Positions 13,552 through 59,059 of a stretch of DNA of 64,000 bases are shown here, one piece after another. The position numbers and the translations under genes were made by a program. Numbering within the stretch: the stretch's first letter is position 1; every line of letters begins with the position of its first letter. The DNA is taken from assembly GCF_003019035.1 (NCBI RefSeq), contig NZ_CP027447.1; one strand, written 5' to 3'. Source of the stretch: Escherichia coli. GTDB taxonomy: Bacteria > Pseudomonadota > Gammaproteobacteria > Enterobacterales > Enterobacteriaceae. A model generated the notes under the pieces. That model was not told the origin of the DNA. It saw only the letters and a list, made by a program, of their open reading frames with translations, and did not search any database.

Positions 13552-14460
13552 ATGAAAACGGGATCTGAGTTTCATGTCGGTATCGTTGGCTTAGGGTCAA
13601 TGGGAATGGGAGCAGCACTGTCATGTGTCCGCGCAGGTCTTTCTACCTGGGGCGCAGACCTGAACAGCAATGCCTGCGCTACGTTGAAAGAGGCAGGTGC
13701 TTGCGGGGTTTCTGATAACGCCGCGACGTTTGCCGAAAAACTGGACGCTCTGCTGGTGCTGGTGGTCAATGCGGCCCAGGTTAAACAGGTGCTGTTTGGT
13801 GAAACAGGCGTTACACAACATCTGAAACCCGGTACGGCAGTAATGGTTTCTTCCACTATCGCTAGTGCTGATGCGCAAGAAATTGCTACCGCTCTGGCTG
13901 GATTCGATCTGGAAATGCTGGATGCGCCAGTTTCTGGTGGTGCAGTAAAAGCCGCTAACGGTGAAATGACTGTCATGGCCTCCGGTAGCGATATTGCCTT
14001 TGAACGACTGGCACCCGTGCTGGAAGCCGTTGCCGGAAAAGTTTATCGCATAGGTGCAGAACCGGGACCAGGTTCGACCGTAAAAATTATTCACCAGTTG
14101 TTAGCGGGCGTACATATTGCTGCCGGAGCCGAAGCGATGGCACTTGCAGCCCGTGCGGGGATCCCGCTGGATGTGATGTATGACGTCGTGACCAATGCCG
14201 CCGGAAATTCCTGGATGTTCGAAAACCGGATGCGTCATGTGGTGGATGGCGATTACACCCCGCATTCAGCCGTCGATATTTTTGTTAAGGATCTTGGTCT
14301 GGTTGCCGATACAGCCAAAGCCCTGCACTTCCCGCTGCCATTGGCCTCAACAGCATTGAATATGTTCACCAGCGCCAGTAACGCGGGTTACGGGAAAGAA
14401 GACGATAGCGCAGTTATCAAGATTTTCTCTGGCATCACTCTACCGGGAGCGAAATCATGA
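13552..14460 (+). CDS. ltnD: L-threonate dehydrogenase (3-hydroxyisobutyrate dehydrogenase family, 302 aa)
   Basis: N-terminal Rossmann GxxGxxG (VGIVGLGSMGMG); corresponds to ygbJ. Confidence 0.88.
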   Translation: MKTGSEFHVGIVGLGSMGMGAALSCVRAGLSTWGADLNSNACATLKEAGACGVSDNAATFAEKLDALLVLVVNAAQVKQVLFGETGVTQHLKPGTAVMVSSTIASADAQEIATALAGFDLEMLDAPVSGGAVKAANGEMTVMASGSDIAFERLAPVLEAVAGKVYRIGAEPGPGSTVKIIHQLLAGVHIAAGAEAMALAARAGIPLDVMYDVVTNAAGNSWMFENRMRHVVDGDYTPHSAVDIFVKDLGLVADTAKALHFPLPLASTALNMFTSASNAGYGKEDDSAVIKIFSGITLPGAKS

Positions 14461-16358: not shown

Positions 16359-17135
16359 ATGCCTCGTTTTGCAGCTAATTTATCCATGATGTTCACCGAA
16401 GTGCCTTTTATTGAACGCTTCGCCGCAGCGCGAAAAGCCGGGTTCGATGCTGTGGAATTTCTGTTTCCCTATAACTACTCCACCCTGCAAATCCAAAAGC
16501 AACTGGAGCAAAACCATCTGACACTGGCGCTGTTCAATACCGCTCCCGGAGATATTAATGCGGGGGAATGGGGATTATCCGCCCTTCCCGGACGTGAGCA
16601 CGAAGCACACGCAGACATCGACCTGGCACTGGAATATGCATTGGCGCTCAATTGTGAACAAGTCCATGTGATGGCAGGCGTCGTGCCCGCTGGCGAAGAT
16701 GCTGAACGGTACAGGGCAGTATTTATCGATAATCTCCGCTACGCTGCCGACCGCTTTGCGCCACACGGCAAGCGAATATTAGTTGAAGCACTCAGCCCCG
16801 GCGTTAAGCCTCATTATCTCTTCTCCAGCCAGTATCAGGCACTGGCTATTGTTGAAGAAGTTGCGCGAGATAACGTGTTTATTCAACTAGATACTTTTCA
16901 TGCGCAAAAAGTAGATGGCAACCTGACGCATTTAATCCGCGACTACGCCGGGAAATATGCGCACGTACAAATTGCCGGACTACCTGATCGACATGAACCG
17001 GACGATGGAGAAATCAACTATCCGTGGCTGTTCCGCCTGTTCGATGAGGTGGGATATCAGGGCTGGATCGGTTGTGAATATAAACCTCGTGGCCTCACCG
17101 AAGAAGGGCTTGGCTGGTTTGACGCCTGGCGCTAA
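16359..17135 (+). CDS. otnI: 2-oxo-tetronate isomerase (hydroxypyruvate isomerase/TIM-barrel family, 258 aa)
   Basis: Xylose isomerase-like TIM barrel; corresponds to ygbM. Confidence 0.85.
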
Positions 17136-17223: not shown

Positions 17224-18588
17224 ATGTCCACAATTACATTGTTATGCATTGCGTTAACTGGCGTAATCATGCTGTTGCTGCTGGTCATCAAGGCAAAGGT
17301 ACAACCATTCGTTGCTCTGCTCCTCGTCAGCCTGTTAGTCGCACTTGCGGCGGGTATACCGGCGGGCGAAGTGGGTAAAGTGATGATCGCCGGGATGGGC
17401 GGTGTGCTTGGTTCCGTCACTATTATTATTGGTCTGGGCGCTATGCTGGGGCGTATGATCGAACACTCTGGTGGTGCAGAGTCACTGGCTAATTATTTCA
17501 GTCGCAAGTTAGGTGACAAACGAACTATCGCTGCACTGACTCTGGCAGCGTTCTTCCTCGGTATCCCCGTCTTCTTTGATGTCGGCTTTATTATTCTTGC
17601 GCCAATCATTTACGGTTTTGCCAAGGTTGCCAAAATATCGCCACTCAAATTTGGCCTGCCTGTCGCTGGGATCATGCTCACTGTTCATGTGGCGGTACCG
17701 CCGCATCCAGGCCCTGTCGCCGCAGCGGGGTTACTCCACGCAGACATCGGCTGGCTAACCATCATCGGTATTGCGATTTCTATTCCCGTAGGGATTGTTG
17801 GCTACTTTGCAGCGAAAATAATCAATAAGCGCCAATATGCAATGTCGGTGGAAGTACTGGAACAGATGCAACTGGCTCCGACCAGTGAGGAAGGCGCGAC
17901 AAAATTAAGCGATAAAATAAATCCACCGGGCGTCGCGCTGGTCACCTCGCTAATTGTTATTCCTATCGCGATTATCATGGCGGGTACGGTTTCCGCAACA
18001 CTGATGCCGCCTTCGCATCCCCTGCTTGGTACGCTACAGCTGATCGGCTCACCAATGGTAGCTCTAATGATTGCGCTGGTGCTGGCATTCTGGTTATTGG
18101 CTTTACGTCGCGGCTGGAGCTTACAACACACCAGCGACATTATGGGCTCAGCCCTTCCCACCGCGGCGGTAGTGATTTTGGTTACTGGTGCTGGAGGGGT
18201 ATTTGGCAAAGTGCTGGTGGAATCGGGCGTCGGCAAAGCCCTTGCCAACATGCTACAAATGATTGACCTGCCTCTGTTACCAGCCGCATTTATTATTTCA
18301 CTGGCGCTGCGTGCATCGCAGGGGTCAGCAACCGTAGCAATCCTGACAACCGGCGGGTTACTCTCAGAAGCGGTGATGGGATTGAATCCGATTCAGTGCG
18401 TATTGGTGACGCTGGCAGCCTGCTTTGGTGGGCTTGGCGCGTCACATATTAATGACTCAGGGTTCTGGATTGTGACCAAATATCTGGGGTTGTCGGTAGC
18501 AGACGGTCTGAAAACCTGGACAGTGTTAACGACCATTCTCGGTTTTACCGGATTCTTAATTACCTGGTGCGTATGGGCGGTAATTTGA
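17224..18588 (+). CDS. ygbN: GntP-family acid-sugar permease (454 aa)
   Basis: Highly hydrophobic 454-aa ORF with GntP-like topology. Confidence 0.88.
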   Translation: MSTITLLCIALTGVIMLLLLVIKAKVQPFVALLLVSLLVALAAGIPAGEVGKVMIAGMGGVLGSVTIIIGLGAMLGRMIEHSGGAESLANYFSRKLGDKRTIAALTLAAFFLGIPVFFDVGFIILAPIIYGFAKVAKISPLKFGLPVAGIMLTVHVAVPPHPGPVAAAGLLHADIGWLTIIGIAISIPVGIVGYFAAKIINKRQYAMSVEVLEQMQLAPTSEEGATKLSDKINPPGVALVTSLIVIPIAIIMAGTVSATLMPPSHPLLGTLQLIGSPMVALMIALVLAFWLLALRRGWSLQHTSDIMGSALPTAAVVILVTGAGGVFGKVLVESGVGKALANMLQMIDLPLLPAAFIISLALRASQGSATVAILTTGGLLSEAVMGLNPIQCVLVTLAACFGGLGASHINDSGFWIVTKYLGLSVADGLKTWTVLTTILGFTGFLITWCVWAVI

Positions 18589-18595
18589 CCTTAAT

Positions 18596-18626
18596 AAAAA
18601 GGTCCGATGGGCATCGGACCTTTTAT
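18596..18626. terminator. Bidirectional rho-independent terminator between convergent ygbN and the decarboxylase small-subunit gene
   Basis: AAAAGGTCCGATG..CATCGGACCTTTT inverted repeat flanked by A/T runs. Confidence 0.55.
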
Positions 18627-18863
18627 TTAGCGCTTACCTTCCGCCAGCAGCGGCGGGATGCTCGGCACCATCGGCGCGTCATCAATATCTTTCTGCGTCA
18701 TGCGGAACGCTTCGGGATAATGTTCGCGGCTGGTGCGGCGCAGCGGTTCGGTATCGCGCCAGGTATAGAGGCAATGCTGGCACTGGTAGACCGTCCAGAC
18801 ATCTTTTACCGGCGATTTCGCCATCACTTCAATCTGTTCATCAGCACAACGTGGACAAATCAT
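18627..18863 (-). CDS. Small subunit of UbiD/UbiX-type aromatic acid decarboxylase (EcdD/KpdD/BsdD-like, 78 aa), zinc-ribbon CPRC...CQHC
   Basis: 78-aa ORF with two Cys pairs, AAGGAG RBS, immediately downstream of UbiD-like gene. Confidence 0.75.
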   Translation of the reverse strand: MICPRCADEQIEVMAKSPVKDVWTVYQCQHCLYTWRDTEPLRRTSREHYPEAFRMTQKDIDDAPMVPSIPPLLAEGKR

Positions 18864-18873
18864 CTTGTTCTCC

Positions 18874-20325
18874 TTATTGACGTGCGGCCAGCATAGCGGT
18901 CAGTTTTTCAGCCCAGGCTTTGGTTTCCGGTAAATCCACCACCGGCTGACTGTAGTGACCGCGGTTGTCCGGGGCGACAGGCGTGGTGGCGTCGATAATC
19001 AGCTTGTCGGTGATCCCCGCCGGGCTTGAGCCTGGGTCGAGTTCCAGCACGGACATATTCGGCAACTGCACCAAATCCCCTGCCGGGTTCACTTTCGAGG
19101 AGAGCGCCCACATCACCTGCGGCAGGTTGAACGGATCAACGTCTTCATCGACCATAATCACCATCTTCACATAGCCCAGACCGTGCGGCGTGGTCATCGC
19201 ACGGAGGCCCACCGCGCGGGCAAAGCCACCGTAGCGTTTTTTGGTGGAGATAATCGCCAGCAGGCCGTGGGTGTACATGGCGTTTACCGCCTGCACTTCC
19301 GGGAACTCGGCTTTCAGTTGCTGATACAGCGGCACGCAGGTGGCTGGCCCCATCAGGTAGTCGATTTCCGTCCACGGCATCCCGAGATAGAGCGATTCAA
19401 AAATGGGTTTGCTGCGATAAGAGACGTTATCGATGCGCACCACGGTCATGTTGCGCCCGCCGGAGTAGTGCCCGGTAAACTCACCGAACGGCCCTTCGAT
19501 TTCACGTTTACGGCTTTCGATGACACCTTCGAGGATCACTTCTGAACCCCACGGCACATCAAAACCAGTCAGCGGGGCGGTGGCGATCGGGTACGGGCTT
19601 TCACGCAGCGCGCCTGCCATTTCGTACTCGGACTGATCATATTTCAGCGGCGTGGCCCCCATCAGCGTGATGATCGGATCGTTACCGAGGGTGATCGCAA
19701 TCGGCAGATCTTCACCGCGCTCTTCCGCTTTATGCAGATGCAGGGCGATATCGTGCATCGGCACCGGTTGCAGGCCGAGCTTACGTTTGCCCTTCACTTC
19801 CATGCGGTAGATACCGACGTTCTGCTTGCCGAAGTTATCCGGATCAAGCGGATCGCGGGAAACCACGCACGCTTTGTCGAGATAGAAACCGCCATCGCCA
19901 TCGTTTAAACGAAACAGCGGCAGGATATCGAACAGGTTGATCTCGTCTCCATCGACGGTGTTCTGCGCCCAGGCTGGATTGGCTCGGCGTTCCGGGGCAA
20001 TCGGGAAGTTGTCCCAGCGGCGGATAAACTCATCGATCTGTTTTTTAACCGGGGTATTTGGCGGCAGGCCGAGGGAAATCGCGTGGTTCTGCCAGGAACC
20101 GATGGTGTTCATCGCCACGCGGGCATCGGTAAAGCCGCGAATATTATCAAACCACAGCGCTGGCGCGCCGTCGCCGATACGCCCGGTGGCGTTGGCTGCG
20201 GCTGCCAGATCCGGTTCTGCGTTCACCTCTTCGCTGATTTTCAGCAATTGCCCATGGTCGTCGAGCGCCCTACCAGGCCATCGGCGTAACCGGCACGGAT
20301 ACCGGCGAGCGTTTTCATACTGCAC
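18874..20325 (-). CDS. UbiD-family (prenyl-FMN dependent) decarboxylase, EcdC/KpdC-like; N-terminal ~18 codons are non-homologous read-through from a deletion junction, start codon uncertain
   Basis: ~465 residues of UbiD-family sequence; ORF begins at GTG 20325 inside the upstream UbiX-like fragment. Confidence 0.7.
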   Translation of the reverse strand: MQYENARRYPCRLRRWPGRALDDHGQLLKISEEVNAEPDLAAAANATGRIGDGAPALWFDNIRGFTDARVAMNTIGSWQNHAISLGLPPNTPVKKQIDEFIRRWDNFPIAPERRANPAWAQNTVDGDEINLFDILPLFRLNDGDGGFYLDKACVVSRDPLDPDNFGKQNVGIYRMEVKGKRKLGLQPVPMHDIALHLHKAEERGEDLPIAITLGNDPIITLMGATPLKYDQSEYEMAGALRESPYPIATAPLTGFDVPWGSEVILEGVIESRKREIEGPFGEFTGHYSGGRNMTVVRIDNVSYRSKPIFESLYLGMPWTEIDYLMGPATCVPLYQQLKAEFPEVQAVNAMYTHGLLAIISTKKRYGGFARAVGLRAMTTPHGLGYVKMVIMVDEDVDPFNLPQVMWALSSKVNPAGDLVQLPNMSVLELDPGSSPAGITDKLIIDATTPVAPDNRGHYSQPVVDLPETKAWAEKLTAMLAARQ

Positions 20326-20579
20326 GGAATAACGATCATGCCGTCGGTACGAAAGGAACCTGAGGAGATGGTCGCCGCCTGATCCGCCGAGTTATGGCTG
20401 AAGTCTGCGAGGGCAGCAACATCGCGAGCGCTGTAAGGCGTTTCCAGTTCAATGGTGGTTTTCGCCCACGTCGACATCACCAGATGAGTCTCGACATTCG
20501 GCATCTCCCGCAGCGCTTGCAGTAATGCCACACCAAGAGGCGCACCGGTAGCCCCTGTCATCCCGACGATCAGTTTCAT
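20241..20579 (-). pseudogene. Truncated UbiX/Pad1-family flavin prenyltransferase (EcdB/KpdB-like): only N-terminal ~105 residues remain, then frameshifted tail and stop
   Basis: Translation matches UbiX through ...DGLVGR then diverges (STTMGNC*); full UbiX is ~190 aa; 3' end overlaps UbiD-like ORF. Confidence 0.75.
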
Positions 20580-20596
20580 TGCTTACTCTCTTAATT

Positions 20597-20610
20597 GTTC
20601 GTATACGAAC
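20597..20610. promoter_or_regulatory. Perfect 14-bp palindrome GTTCGTATACGAAC in divergent promoter region; candidate MarR-family operator
   Basis: Read directly; lies between divergently oriented decarboxylase genes and MarR-family gene. Confidence 0.35.
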
Positions 20611-20725
20611 GTTATTATTAACATACTCCTTCATTTCCACAGCGGCAAGGATTGAAAAGTAACAACATCTTCTTCGTCACTGAAAAACCGCTATGATAGC
20701 GACAGAGAATTAGCCCGGAGTTTAC

Positions 20726-21133
20726 ATGGCGTTACGAAATAAAGCGTTCCATCAGTTACGACAGCTTTTTCAGCAGCATACGGCCCGCTGGCAGCACGAG
20801 TTACCTGACCTGACCAAACCACAGTACGCGGTGATGCGCGCCATTGCTGATAAGCCTGGTATCGAACAGGTGGCACTGATAGAAGCAGCAGTCAGCACCA
20901 AAGCAACGCTGGCAGAAATGTTGGCAAGAATGGAAAATCGTGGCTTAGTCAGACGTGAACATGACGCCGCTGATAAGCGGCGACGCTTTGTCTGGCTGAC
21001 TGCCGAAGGAGAAAAGGTACTTGCTGCGGCGATACCGATTGGCGACAGTGTGGATGAGGAATTTTTGGGGCGTTTGAGTGGAGAAGAGCAGGAGCTGTTT
21101 ATGCAGCTGGTGCGCAAGATGATGAGCAAATAG
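20726..21133 (+). CDS. MarR/SlyA-family transcriptional regulator (135 aa)
   Basis: Winged-helix MarR-like sequence, divergent from decarboxylase genes. Confidence 0.8.
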   Translation: MALRNKAFHQLRQLFQQHTARWQHELPDLTKPQYAVMRAIADKPGIEQVALIEAAVSTKATLAEMLARMENRGLVRREHDAADKRRRFVWLTAEGEKVLAAAIPIGDSVDEEFLGRLSGEEQELFMQLVRKMMSK

Positions 21134-21252: not shown

Positions 21253-22245
21253 TTATTCGCGGAACAGCGCTTCGATATTCAGCCCCTGCGTTTGCAGGAT
21301 TTCGCGCAAACGGCGCAGGCCTTCAACCTGAATCTGGCGAACACGTTCACGGGTGAGGCCAATTTCACGACCTACATCTTCCAGTGTTGCCGCTTCGTAC
21401 CCCAGCAAACCGAATCGACGTGCCAGTACTTCACGCTGTTTGGCGTTCAGCTCGAACAGCCATTTGACGATGCTCTGCTTCATATCGTCATCTTGCGTGG
21501 TATCTTCCGGACCGTTCTCTTTTTCATCGGCCAGGATGTCCAGCAACGCTTTTTCGGAATCACCACCCAGCGGGGTGTCTACCGAGGTAATGCGCTCGTT
21601 AAGACGAAGCATACGGCTGACGTCATCAACTGGCTTATCCAGTTGCTCTGCGATCTCTTCCGCACTTGGTTCATGGTCCAGTTTATGGGACAACTCGCGT
21701 GCGGTTCGCAGGTAAACGTTCAGCTCCTTTACGATGTGAATCGGCAAACGAATAGTACGGGTTTGGTTCATAATCGCCCGTTCGATCGTCTGGCGAATCC
21801 ACCAGGTTGCGTATGTTGAGAAGCGGAAACCACGTTCCGGGTCAAACTTCTCTACCGCGCGGATCAGCCCCAGGTTGCCCTCTTCGATAAGATCCAGCAA
21901 AGCCAGACCACGATTGCCATAACGGCGGGCAATTTTTACCACCAGGCGCAAGTTACTCTCGATCATCCGGCGGCGAGAGGCAACATCTCCACGCAGTGCG
22001 CGACGCGCAAAATAAACTTCTTCTTCGGCCGTTAACAGTGGTGAATAACCAATCTCACCAAGGTAAAGCTGAGTCGCGTCCAGCACACGCTGTGTGGCTC
22101 CCTGCGATAACAGTTCCTCTTCGGCCAAATCGTTATCACTGGGTTCCTCTTCTACTAAGGCCTTTTCGTCAAAAACCTCAACTCCGTTCTCATCAAATTC
22201 CGCATCTTCATTTAAATCATGAACTTTCAGCGTATTCTGACTCAT
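21253..22245 (-). CDS. rpoS: RNA polymerase sigma factor RpoS (sigma-38, 330 aa)
   Basis: Sigma-70 family regions 2-4; start [14 protein letters not shown]; codon 33 is GAG (Glu), no amber. Confidence 0.97.
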
Positions 22246-22307
22246 AAGGTGGCTCCTACCCGTGATCCCTTGACGGAACATTCAAGCAAAAGCCTGGTTC
22301 CGCCGAT

Positions 22308-23447
22308 TTATCGCTGCGGCAAATAACGCAGCGGGTTTACGGATTTCCCCTTGTAACGAATTTCAAAATGCAAGCGTGTTGAACTGGTTCCGGTGCTACC
22401 CATGGTTGCTATTTTTTGCCCCGCCTTCACTTCTTGTTGTTCCCGGACCAGCATTGTGTCGTTATGGGCGTAGGCACTCAGGTAATCATCATTATGTTTG
22501 ATGATAATCAGATTACCGTAGCCGCGCAGCGCGTTACCGGCATAAACAACGCGGCCATCTGCAGTCGCGATAATTGCCTGTCCTTTGCTGCCTGCGATAT
22601 CAATCCCCTTGTTGCCCCCCTCAGAAGCGCCAAAGGTTTCGATCACTTTGCCCTCAGTCGGCCAGCGCCAGGTGGAGATAGGCGTACTGGTTGATGTACT
22701 GCTGACAGTCGGCTCGGTTGTGCTTGCTGTTGGTACCGTTACAGGCGCTGTGACCGTGGTCGCAGTTGGCTTGTTGTTCGGCAACATTTTGTTAGCACTC
22801 TGTTCACCCGAAGACTCAGAATACGTAATTGTCGGTTGCGACGCAACAGCAACGGTGGAATTTTGTGCAGGCTTGATCACAACTCCTTGCTCTGCTGCGT
22901 CGGCCTGGGTAATGGCATTTCCGCCAGTGATTGGCGTACCGGAAGCATTCCCCACCTGTAAGGTCTGACCGACGTTCAGCGCGTATGGTGCCTGAATATT
23001 GTTGCGCTGAGCAAGGTCACGGAAATCGTTGCCAGTAATCCAGGCGATATAGAAAAGTGTGTCGCCTTTTTTCACTGTATAGGTACTGCCGCTATAACTG
23101 CCTTTCGGAATGTTCCCATACTGACGGTTATAGACGATGCGTCCGTTTTCCATCTGTACCGGCTGCTGAGCTACTGGCTGCACCGGCTGGATTTGCGGTT
23201 GTTGAGTGGCCTGAATTTGTGGCTGCTGTACCGGCTGAATTTGCGGTTGCTGCGCTGTAGACGTCGTCCCCATTTTCGGCGGCGGCGTAATCAACATACC
23301 AGAATTGGTATTTGCAGGCGCATTGCCATTAACGGAGCTGACCGGGGCCGGTGGATTTGAAGTGTCAGAACAGCCTGCCAGCCATAGCGAAACCAGTGAC
23401 AAAGCCGCAATGCGGCGAACGGTGAATTTTGGGCTTCCCGCGCTCAT
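22308..23447 (-). CDS. nlpD: Murein hydrolase activator lipoprotein NlpD (LysM + LytM/M23 domains, 379 aa)
   Basis: Lipobox LAGC, LysM, C-terminal M23-like domain. Confidence 0.95.
23154..23252 (-). repeat. In-frame imperfect tandem repeat inside nlpD encoding QQPQIQ(P/A)(V/T) units
   Basis: Three ~24-27-bp repeats visible in DNA and protein. Confidence 0.6.
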
Positions 23448-32394: not shown

Positions 32395-33094
32395 CGGTTT
32401 ATCCCCGCTGGCGCGGGGAACACTTGCAGTAGCACTTCAGTTCTGTTTTTGTCACCGGTTTATCCCCGCTGGCGCGGGGAACACGCCTGATAGCGCCTCC
32501 AGCCTTCGCCCTGGTGCGGTTTATCCCCGCTGGCGCGGGGAACACTGCATAGCTTTGGCTTCTTCTTTAACGGACGCCGGTTTATCCCCGCTGGCGCGGG
32601 GAACACAGTACCACTGTTTTTTCTTCGGTGCCCAGCCACGGTTTATCCCCGCTGGCGCGGGGAACACGTTTACATATTTATACCTACACGCTCAATCGAC
32701 GGTTTATCCCCGCTGGCGCGGGGAACACCCGTTTTCGATTGAACAGAAAGATTTCAACACCGGTTTATCCCCGCTGGCGCGGGGAACACAATACAGACCC
32801 GTTGTACGGTTTTTGCGAGCACGGTTTATCCCCGCTGGCGCGGGGAACACTTGGAAATCACCTCCCCGATCTCCGCGCTGTCCGGTTTATCCCCGCTGGC
32901 GCGGGGAACACCCCTCGGCAAAAATGCCTTTTTCCTCGTCGGTCGGTTTATCCCCGCTGGCGCGGGGAACACCACGGGCCAGACGGTAGCAACAATTTTA
33001 CGGCCGGTTTATCCCCGCTGGCGCGGGGAACACCAAAACGGAAGTGCCAGTATTGCCAGAATCACCGGTTTATCCCCGCTGGCGCGGGGAACAC
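32395..33094 (-). CRISPR. CRISPR array 1 (type I-E): 12 identical 29-bp repeats CGGTTTATCCCCGCTGGCGCGGGGAACAC (plus-strand reading), 11 spacers of 32 bp; leader at high-coordinate end
   Basis: Repeat starts at 32395, 32456, 32517, 32578, 32639, 32700, 32761, 32822, 32883, 32944, 33005, 33066; perfect 61-bp periodicity. Confidence 0.98.
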
Positions 33095-38961: not shown

Positions 38962-39044
38962 CCTCTCGTAAAAAAGACCATCCCTGGTCGGTTGTCCATC
39001 CTTTTTTGTGTATCAACTATTCAGAGAATCCTGTCGCAGACATC

Positions 39045-41938: not shown

Positions 41939-42091
41939 CTACTTCTTCGATTCGTAAGCGAGAACCGCCTTAAACTCCATACCACGTTCTCTGATACTCA
42001 ACTCACACAACGAGTCGCCTACCATCAGCGTGAATCCCAGTACTGTAAAACACAGCACTATGATTGCCACAAGGGCATATTTTGTCAGCAT
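41939..42091 (-). CDS. hokX: Hok/Gef-family type I toxin (50 aa), likely hokX of the hokX-sokX locus
   Basis: Own translation [52 protein letters not shown] helix + conserved LCE...AYES Hok signature; GGAGG RBS; below 60-aa cutoff so absent from ORF track. Confidence 0.8.
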
Positions 42092-42355
42092 GTCTTGCCT
42101 CCCTGCAAAGAAGAGACTAACATTCGAATTGTTTGGGTTCGAACGCTGGCCTCAGGTTGATAGAAATATCGCCTGGGGCTTTTGTCCATCTGGAACCTCG
42201 CGAATGCTTAACGCCAGACAGCCTCAAGCACCCAACGCCATTCTATACCTGTTAATTCTTCCAACGACGTTCACGTTTAAAATCAGGAATGCTGCTCGCA
42301 AAATAAAAACGCCCCCATCATTTCTGACAGAGGCGTTTAATTTATCCGGCAATAT

Positions 42356-58786: not shown

Positions 58787-59059
58787 TGGTTTATCCCCGC
58801 TGGTGCGGGGAACTCTTGGCATAGGCGCTATAGCGGCGCTCTGTGTCCGGTTTATCCCCGCTGGCACGGGGAACTCGTTGGTGCCGTTGTTGTAACCGTA
58901 GAAACCGACGGTTTATCCCCGCTGACGTGGGGAACTCGCAGGTCAACACGGGCGATAAACCCGGCTGACCGGTTTATCCCCGCTGACGTGGGGAACTCGA
59001 TAAGCAGATTGCAGAACTACAGGCGAAGGACGGTTTATCCCCGCTGACGTGGGGAACTC
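58787..59059 (-). CRISPR. CRISPR array 2 (type I-E repeats, 5 repeats / 4 spacers of 32 bp); repeat variants ending AACTC; leader at high-coordinate end
   Basis: Repeats at 58787, 58848, 58909, 58970, 59031; R1 TGG…GCTGGTGCGGGG, R2 …GCTGGCACGGGG, R3-R5 …GCTGACGTGGGG. Confidence 0.93.

Follow-up and report, generated by a model that had tools for sequence, protein, structure and literature searches.

A recent, clonal 315-bp deletion between short direct repeats removes the ecdB/ecdC boundary of the ecdBCD operon in Escherichia coli

What becomes of a decarboxylase operon when the gene for its flavin prenyltransferase runs out of frame into the gene for the decarboxylase itself? The question is raised by a stretch of 64,000 nucleotides of E. 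coli DNA (contig NZ_CP027447.1, assembly GCF_003019035.1), the whole of which we call the window. A sequence-only reading of this DNA had claimed that a UbiX-like gene was fused out of frame to a UbiD-like decarboxylase gene by a deletion of ~0.3 kb with microhomology at its junction, and that the locus was probably non-functional. The analysis presented here supports both that description and its interpretation. We conclude, with a probability of about 0.85, that the ecdBCD allele in the window arose by a recent natural deletion, that its ecdB and ecdC are fresh pseudogenes, and that the active decarboxylase has most likely been lost.

The gene order of the window and the loci that match it place the deletion site in the mutS-rpoS variable region of E. 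coli. In the RefSeq annotation of the matching loci, the minus-strand genes are named as 'non-oxidative hydroxyarylic acid decarboxylases subunits B, C and D', and the block in the window is the accessory operon ecdBCD/kpdBCD (pad1-yclC-yclD), situated between ygbN and rpoS (Table 1). An ecdBCD-type block is known as 'pattern IV' of the o454-nlpD region (PMC4209514). The window shares gene order and the ygbN/rpoS position with ecdBCD/kpdBCD loci that carry a slyA/kpdR-like regulator in mutS-rpoS, and it is 94-100% identical in nucleotide sequence to the ecdBCD loci of complete E. coli genomes, which we found in 2,381 of 5,426 by searching with a 701-nt query across the site. Unlike the known ecdBCD/kpdBCD loci, it lacks 315 bp across the ecdB/ecdC boundary.

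Table 1. Features of the ecdBCD region and its surroundings in the window
Feature	Position	Strand	Remark
ygbM	16359-17135	+	
ygbN	17224-18588	+	
ecdD, subunit D, 78 aa, intact	18627-18863	-	own strong Shine-Dalgarno site (-9.3 kcal/mol)
ecdC remnant, UbiD-family decarboxylase subunit C	18874..20268	-	Ala12 (20268) to stop (18874), 464/475 codons
ecdB', truncated UbiX-family flavin prenyltransferase, subunit B, 112 aa	20241..20579	-	
TTG, substitute ecdC start	20245..20247	-	chosen by gene callers
Deletion junction, sole kept copy of GGCGC	20265..20269	-	
Intact intergenic control region, regulator gene to ecdB'	20580..20725	.	
MarR-family regulator (slyA/kpdR-like), 135 aa, intact	20726..21133	+	divergent transcription
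rpoS	21253-22281	-	
nlpD	22308-23447	-	

The deletion left ecdD, the regulator gene and the intergenic control region unchanged. The ecdD product is a full-length match to NCBIfam NF041205 (VdcD): it scores 121.2 bits, where the cutoff is 30, and covers profile positions 1-70 of 70. Upstream of ecdB, 17 nt from its start and towards the divergent MarR-family gene, lies a perfect 14-bp palindrome, GTTCGTATACGAAC (20597-20610), which is a plausible candidate for an operator site. A promoter scan of 18500-20800 found no sigma-70-like site and was uninformative. With the regulator and the promoter region untouched, the operon would most likely still be transcribed.

To fix the end points of the deletion, we aligned the window directly with strain SCU-172 (L001), whose locus is intact. 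The comparison shows a loss of exactly 315 bp from the window. The left match ends at window position 20265 and the right match starts at 20269, giving a 5-bp overlap, GGCGC. These five bases are present at both end points of the intact locus (L001 3332-3336 and 3647-3651). When the next six bases are included, the flanks are identical at 9 of 11 positions (GGCGCgCGgCG versus GGCGCtCGaCG), with mismatches at window 20264 and 20261. When random deletions of 50-1000 bp were simulated within the intact operon, junction microhomology of at least 5 bp arose in only 0.7% of them. The DNA on both sides of the junction is collinear with, and identical to, the intact locus, and the junction is clean, with neither inserted bases nor a mobile element. 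The locus bears the marks of a microhomology-mediated deletion, namely a direct repeat that was ancestrally present at both ends, one retained copy, and no filler or mobile DNA. Alignment to intact ecdBCD/kpdBCD loci, which the sequence-only reading had suggested, thus confirmed a deletion of about the predicted size and put its end points at GGCGC repeats 315 bp apart. The microhomology had been given as GCGC; a repeat does lie at the junction, but it is one base longer.

The removed segment comprised ecdB codons 106-197 with the stop codon, the ecdC Shine-Dalgarno sequence (AGGAG), the overlapping TAATG stop/start, and ecdC codons 1-11. The sequence-only reading had thus been right in predicting that the UbiX-like gene had lost its 3' half and the UbiD-like gene its first codons. 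The two genes use different frames, so reading on from ecdB across the junction now meets ecdC out of frame and comes to a stop 7 codons later. The ecdB' open reading frame begins MKLIVG...IRAGYADGLVGR, which is EcdB residues 1-105, and continues with STTMGNC and a stop (20264-20241), the out-of-frame tail that had been read from the window at the outset. The length of the deletion is a multiple of 3, and the ecdC frame is kept from Ala12 to its stop codon. A second frame of the junction DNA reads ALDDHGQLLKISEEV..., which is EcdC from Ala12.

Is the junction real? The same 46-nt junction is found in five other contigs that we fetched, four from SRA runs (L002, L003, L006 and L007) and one from NCBI (L005, GCA_032174115.2), and over 5-21 kb these differ from the window by 0-1 SNP. 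Moreover, in a large protein collection the exact 112-aa product is recorded for 99 contigs, up to 5.17 Mb long, that come from NCBI and Logan (SRA-run) assemblies. An error of sequencing or assembly, such as the collapse of a repeat, would be in keeping with the absence of the junction from every complete RefSeq E. coli genome, but a 5-bp repeat is far too short for assembly collapse, and the recurrence of the junction in separate assemblies, together with the 99 product contigs, effectively refutes such an error. We leave it next to no weight, although the sequence-only reading had allowed for it. None of our measurements speaks against the deletion.

The protein cluster that contains the 112-aa product has another member, P0003. 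This 247-aa predicted protein, from a 1,092-bp ENA contig, consists of EcdB residues 1-101 (...IRAGYADG) followed by unrelated membrane-protein sequence, and it breaks 4 residues before the break point in the window. We considered whether it records the same event and rejected this; a chimeric metagenome contig was judged most likely.

How old and how widespread is the deletion? Among the listed matches to the 701-nt query, every locus had the intact length, appearing as two pieces that span ~1,015 bp where the window has 701 bp. A second query of 46 nt, centred on the junction, was designed to share no megablast seed word with intact loci, and it matched none of the 5,426 complete E. coli genomes. 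The 315-bp allele is also not among the size variants listed for 'pattern IV' in PMC4209514. The complete genome nearest to the window is that of SCU-301, a phylogroup F, ST967 strain (PMC11251922) with an intact ecdBCD locus. Across the 44 kb compared, all that separates it from the window is the 315-bp deletion, one SNP, one 61-bp CRISPR unit and one 8-bp tandem copy; the SNP is the only base substitution in window 1-33094, so that the DNA flanking the deletion differs by only ~1 SNP in 33 kb. Since the locus is intact in all of the listed matches from the 2,381 genomes that carry it, including the sister SCU-301, and the junction occurs in no complete genome, the intact form is the ancestral one. 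The deletion itself is a genuine event of very recent date, restricted to a single clone near phylogroup F ST967.

The reverse polarity, in which the short UbiX-like protein is the natural form of the lineage and the 315 bp are an insertion elsewhere, deserves almost no credence. We found nothing in its support. The sequence-only reading had left room for a UbiX-like protein that is naturally ~110 aa long in close relatives, but EcdB has 197 aa in L001, L004 and PDB 1SBZ alike. The intact form encodes this full-length protein, which shares 97% identity with the E. coli O157:H7 Pad1/UbiX-like protein of known crystal structure (1SBZ), and also a 475-aa EcdC whose whole length can be aligned with solved UbiD enzymes. 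By contrast, the short form has a frame-shifted tail and lacks catalytic residues. The intact length of the listed loci from the 2,381 genomes, the match to 1SBZ and the coverage of the family profiles together refute a naturally short UbiX.

Several other features of the window came to light in these comparisons. The SNP lies at 13813, within the ltnD (ygbJ) open reading frame (13552-14460), where the window has A and SCU-301 has G. A type I-E CRISPR array at 32395-33094 contains 12 identical 29-nt repeats; in SCU-301 the array is longer by one 61-bp repeat-spacer unit, situated at its cas-proximal end (window ~33066-33094). A second, degenerate array at 58787-59059 has 5 repeats at 61-bp spacing, with 2-3 mismatches to the repeat of the first. 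Upstream of casA, between the cas3 stop and the casA start (38995-39004), TCCATCCT occurs once in the window but as a tandem pair in SCU-301, an 8-bp difference in copy number. A sok antitoxin RNA (Rfam RF01794, 111 bits) is encoded on the minus strand at 42076-42233, and this known RNA was all that an Rfam scan of the whole window found. Because SCU-301 has a Hok/Gef-family gene at the matching place (cas3/cysH), we take this to be a chromosomal hok/sok locus. Elsewhere in the species, one match to the 701-nt query (H40), in NZ_CP038353.1 of E. coli O157:H7 strain F8797 (1131680-1132632), starts only at query base 63. The annotation there places a 'sigma-70 factor domain-containing protein' beside a UbiX-family gene, which points to another, distinct rearrangement of this operon, on its rpoS/regulator side.

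How did the deletion arise? In E. coli, slipped-strand misalignment and RecA-independent short-homology recombination are classically recognised by a clean junction at which one copy of a short direct repeat survives. Classic lacI deletions between short direct repeats reportedly arose by replication slippage. Like these, the deletion in the window had an ancestral repeat at both ends, kept one copy, left a clean junction and spans a few hundred base pairs. It differs from them in that its repeat is only 5 bp (9/11 when extended) and no hairpin joins the end points. The deleted DNA has no unusual secondary structure (fold z-score 0.26), and among repeats that could bridge the end points, none fits better than GGCGC extended to 9/11. 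Two of the three other differences between the window and SCU-301 are copy-number changes between direct repeats. A single misalignment of the two GGCGC repeats, 315 bp apart, would have removed the intervening segment and one repeat copy, whether by replication slippage or by RecA-independent short-homology recombination. We infer slippage here from one event with a 5-bp repeat.

The consequences for the prenyltransferase can be read against a well-characterised relative. The O157:H7 enzyme (1SBZ, 'O157UbiX') makes prenyl-FMN from DMAP or DMAPP, and in PaUbiX the residues E140, Y169 and position 181 are elements of the phosphate and prenyl site (PMC6541611). O157UbiX H164 is equivalent to PaUbiX F181 (PMC6541611), and we mapped E123 and Y152 of EcdB to PaUbiX E140 and Y169 by the same 17-residue offset. 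Intact EcdB has E, Y and H at 123, 152 and 164, and all three fall in the deleted part. Compared with O157UbiX, EcdB' is nearly identical over residues 1-105, with 2 substitutions there, but has none of residues 106-197. The title of a reference cited in PMC6541611 calls the 1SBZ homologue dodecameric.

Profile searches describe the same loss. Against the full-length VdcB model (NCBIfam NF041206), EcdB' scores 161.1 bits, below the cutoff of 290, and covers positions 1-106 of 184, whereas intact EcdB scores 311.5 bits over positions 1-184. EcdB' is barely above the cutoff of the broad TIGR00421 model (117.0 versus 108.9), with half of the model matched, and spans positions 1-89 of 162 of Pfam Flavoprotein. 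Cut after residue 105 and extended by 7 unrelated residues, the protein has lost the half that holds the prenyl-phosphate site, and EcdB' is predicted to be inactive.

Does the loss of EcdB by itself kill the operon? The sequence-only reading had argued that it probably does, given that UbiD-type enzymes need prenyl-FMN from their UbiX partner. Housekeeping ubiX is present once each in 5,424 of the 5,426 complete E. coli genomes, and the supply of prenyl-FMN is therefore probably kept. Because this housekeeping enzyme should provide the cofactor, the loss of EcdB alone is no proof of a dead locus, and the earlier argument from prenyl-FMN is weaker than it seemed. Its conclusion is better sustained by ecdC, which lost its Shine-Dalgarno sequence, its ATG and a conserved N-terminal segment. 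On sequence grounds, the case for inactivation rests more firmly on the missing ecdC start than on the truncated ecdB.

The native ecdC start had a Shine-Dalgarno interaction of -7.4 kcal/mol, which is now deleted. The in-frame substitutes (GTG 20325, TTG 20247, GTG 20226, GTG 20118 and ATG 20112) all have -2.0 kcal/mol or weaker. One of these, the TTG chosen by gene callers, precedes the ecdB' stop by 1 nt (TTGCTGA) and lacks a Shine-Dalgarno match (-2.0 kcal/mol). Translation from it would give a 457-aa product that lacks residues 1-18; this product scores 761.2 bits against VdcC (NCBIfam NF041204), above the cutoff of 650, and covers positions 17-466 of 467. Intact EcdC aligns with the UbiD-family subunit C of the B. 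subtilis BsdC type (PDB 7AE4) over residues 3-471 (E = 2e-160). Compared with subunit C of the 7AE4/VdcC type, the window ecdC keeps residues 12-475 intact but is without its start codon, its Shine-Dalgarno sequence and its first 11 residues (18 if TTG is the start). The missing N-terminus lies within the family alignments, which begin at residue 4 for VdcC, 6 for TIGR00148, 10 for Pfam UbiD_N and 3 for 7AE4. Because the profiles and 7AE4 align from residues 3-10, the missing segment belongs to the conserved fold. Of the elements that mark a complete UbiD-family gene, the ecdC remnant has lost its ribosome-binding site, its start codon and the N-terminal segment conserved in the family.

Judged from its nucleotides, the ecdC remnant has no credible start codon. 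Without the ribosome-binding site, the ATG and codons 1-11, translation would be inefficient, would begin at TTG or GTG, and would yield a protein whose N-terminal segment is absent. EcdC' is probably made poorly, if at all, and misfolded. The gene list of L005 (GCA_032174115.2, 9522-11374) shows a 457-aa ecdC that starts from the TTG, and the list includes no gene for the 112-aa ecdB'.

Weak termination-reinitiation at the TTG next to the ecdB' UGA is possible, and it is the basis on which the operon could still work. Ribosomes that terminate at the ecdB' UGA would reinitiate at TTG 20247 and make an EcdC without residues 1-18, which would fold, pair with EcdD and receive prenyl-FMN from housekeeping UbiX. 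The arrangement of the site lends itself to this, with the TTG and the ecdB' stop both contained in TTGCTGA, and the near-universal housekeeping ubiX would meet the need for cofactor. The 457-aa product also passes the VdcC cutoff and is listed as a gene on the contig of an NCBI assembly. However, TTG is a weak start codon with no Shine-Dalgarno sequence, at -2.0 against the native -7.4 kcal/mol, and the lost residues belong to an N-terminal segment that is conserved throughout the profiles and the homologue. The lack of further disabling mutations in ecdC and ecdD might seem to speak for a working operon, but it is uninformative when the deletion is so recent. We therefore regard a functional operon as unlikely. 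It is less likely still, and to us far-fetched, that the deletion is something other than simple decay, with a translationally coupled, shortened EcdC served by housekeeping UbiX, or a 112-aa half-UbiX with an effect of its own (such as interference with oligomeric UbiX), helping the clone to spread. Loss of the decarboxylase through a recent deletion remains our preferred reading.

What does this allele mean for E. coli? The operon, the polymorphic region, the enzymes and the type of mutation are all well known. The 315-bp allele itself is new and is a case of ordinary lineage-specific pseudogenisation, one more polymorphism in the variable mutS-rpoS region, with little significance beyond annotation and strain typing. 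For annotation, it illustrates that gene calls can hide the loss of the real ecdC start. For typing, the junction is a clean clonal marker of a recent lineage close to phylogroup F ST967 and could be told from the intact locus by PCR, its product being shorter by 315 bp. If any phenotype were linked to the clone, one candidate would be loss of the decarboxylation of hydroxyarylic acids of the 4-hydroxybenzoate or vanillate type.
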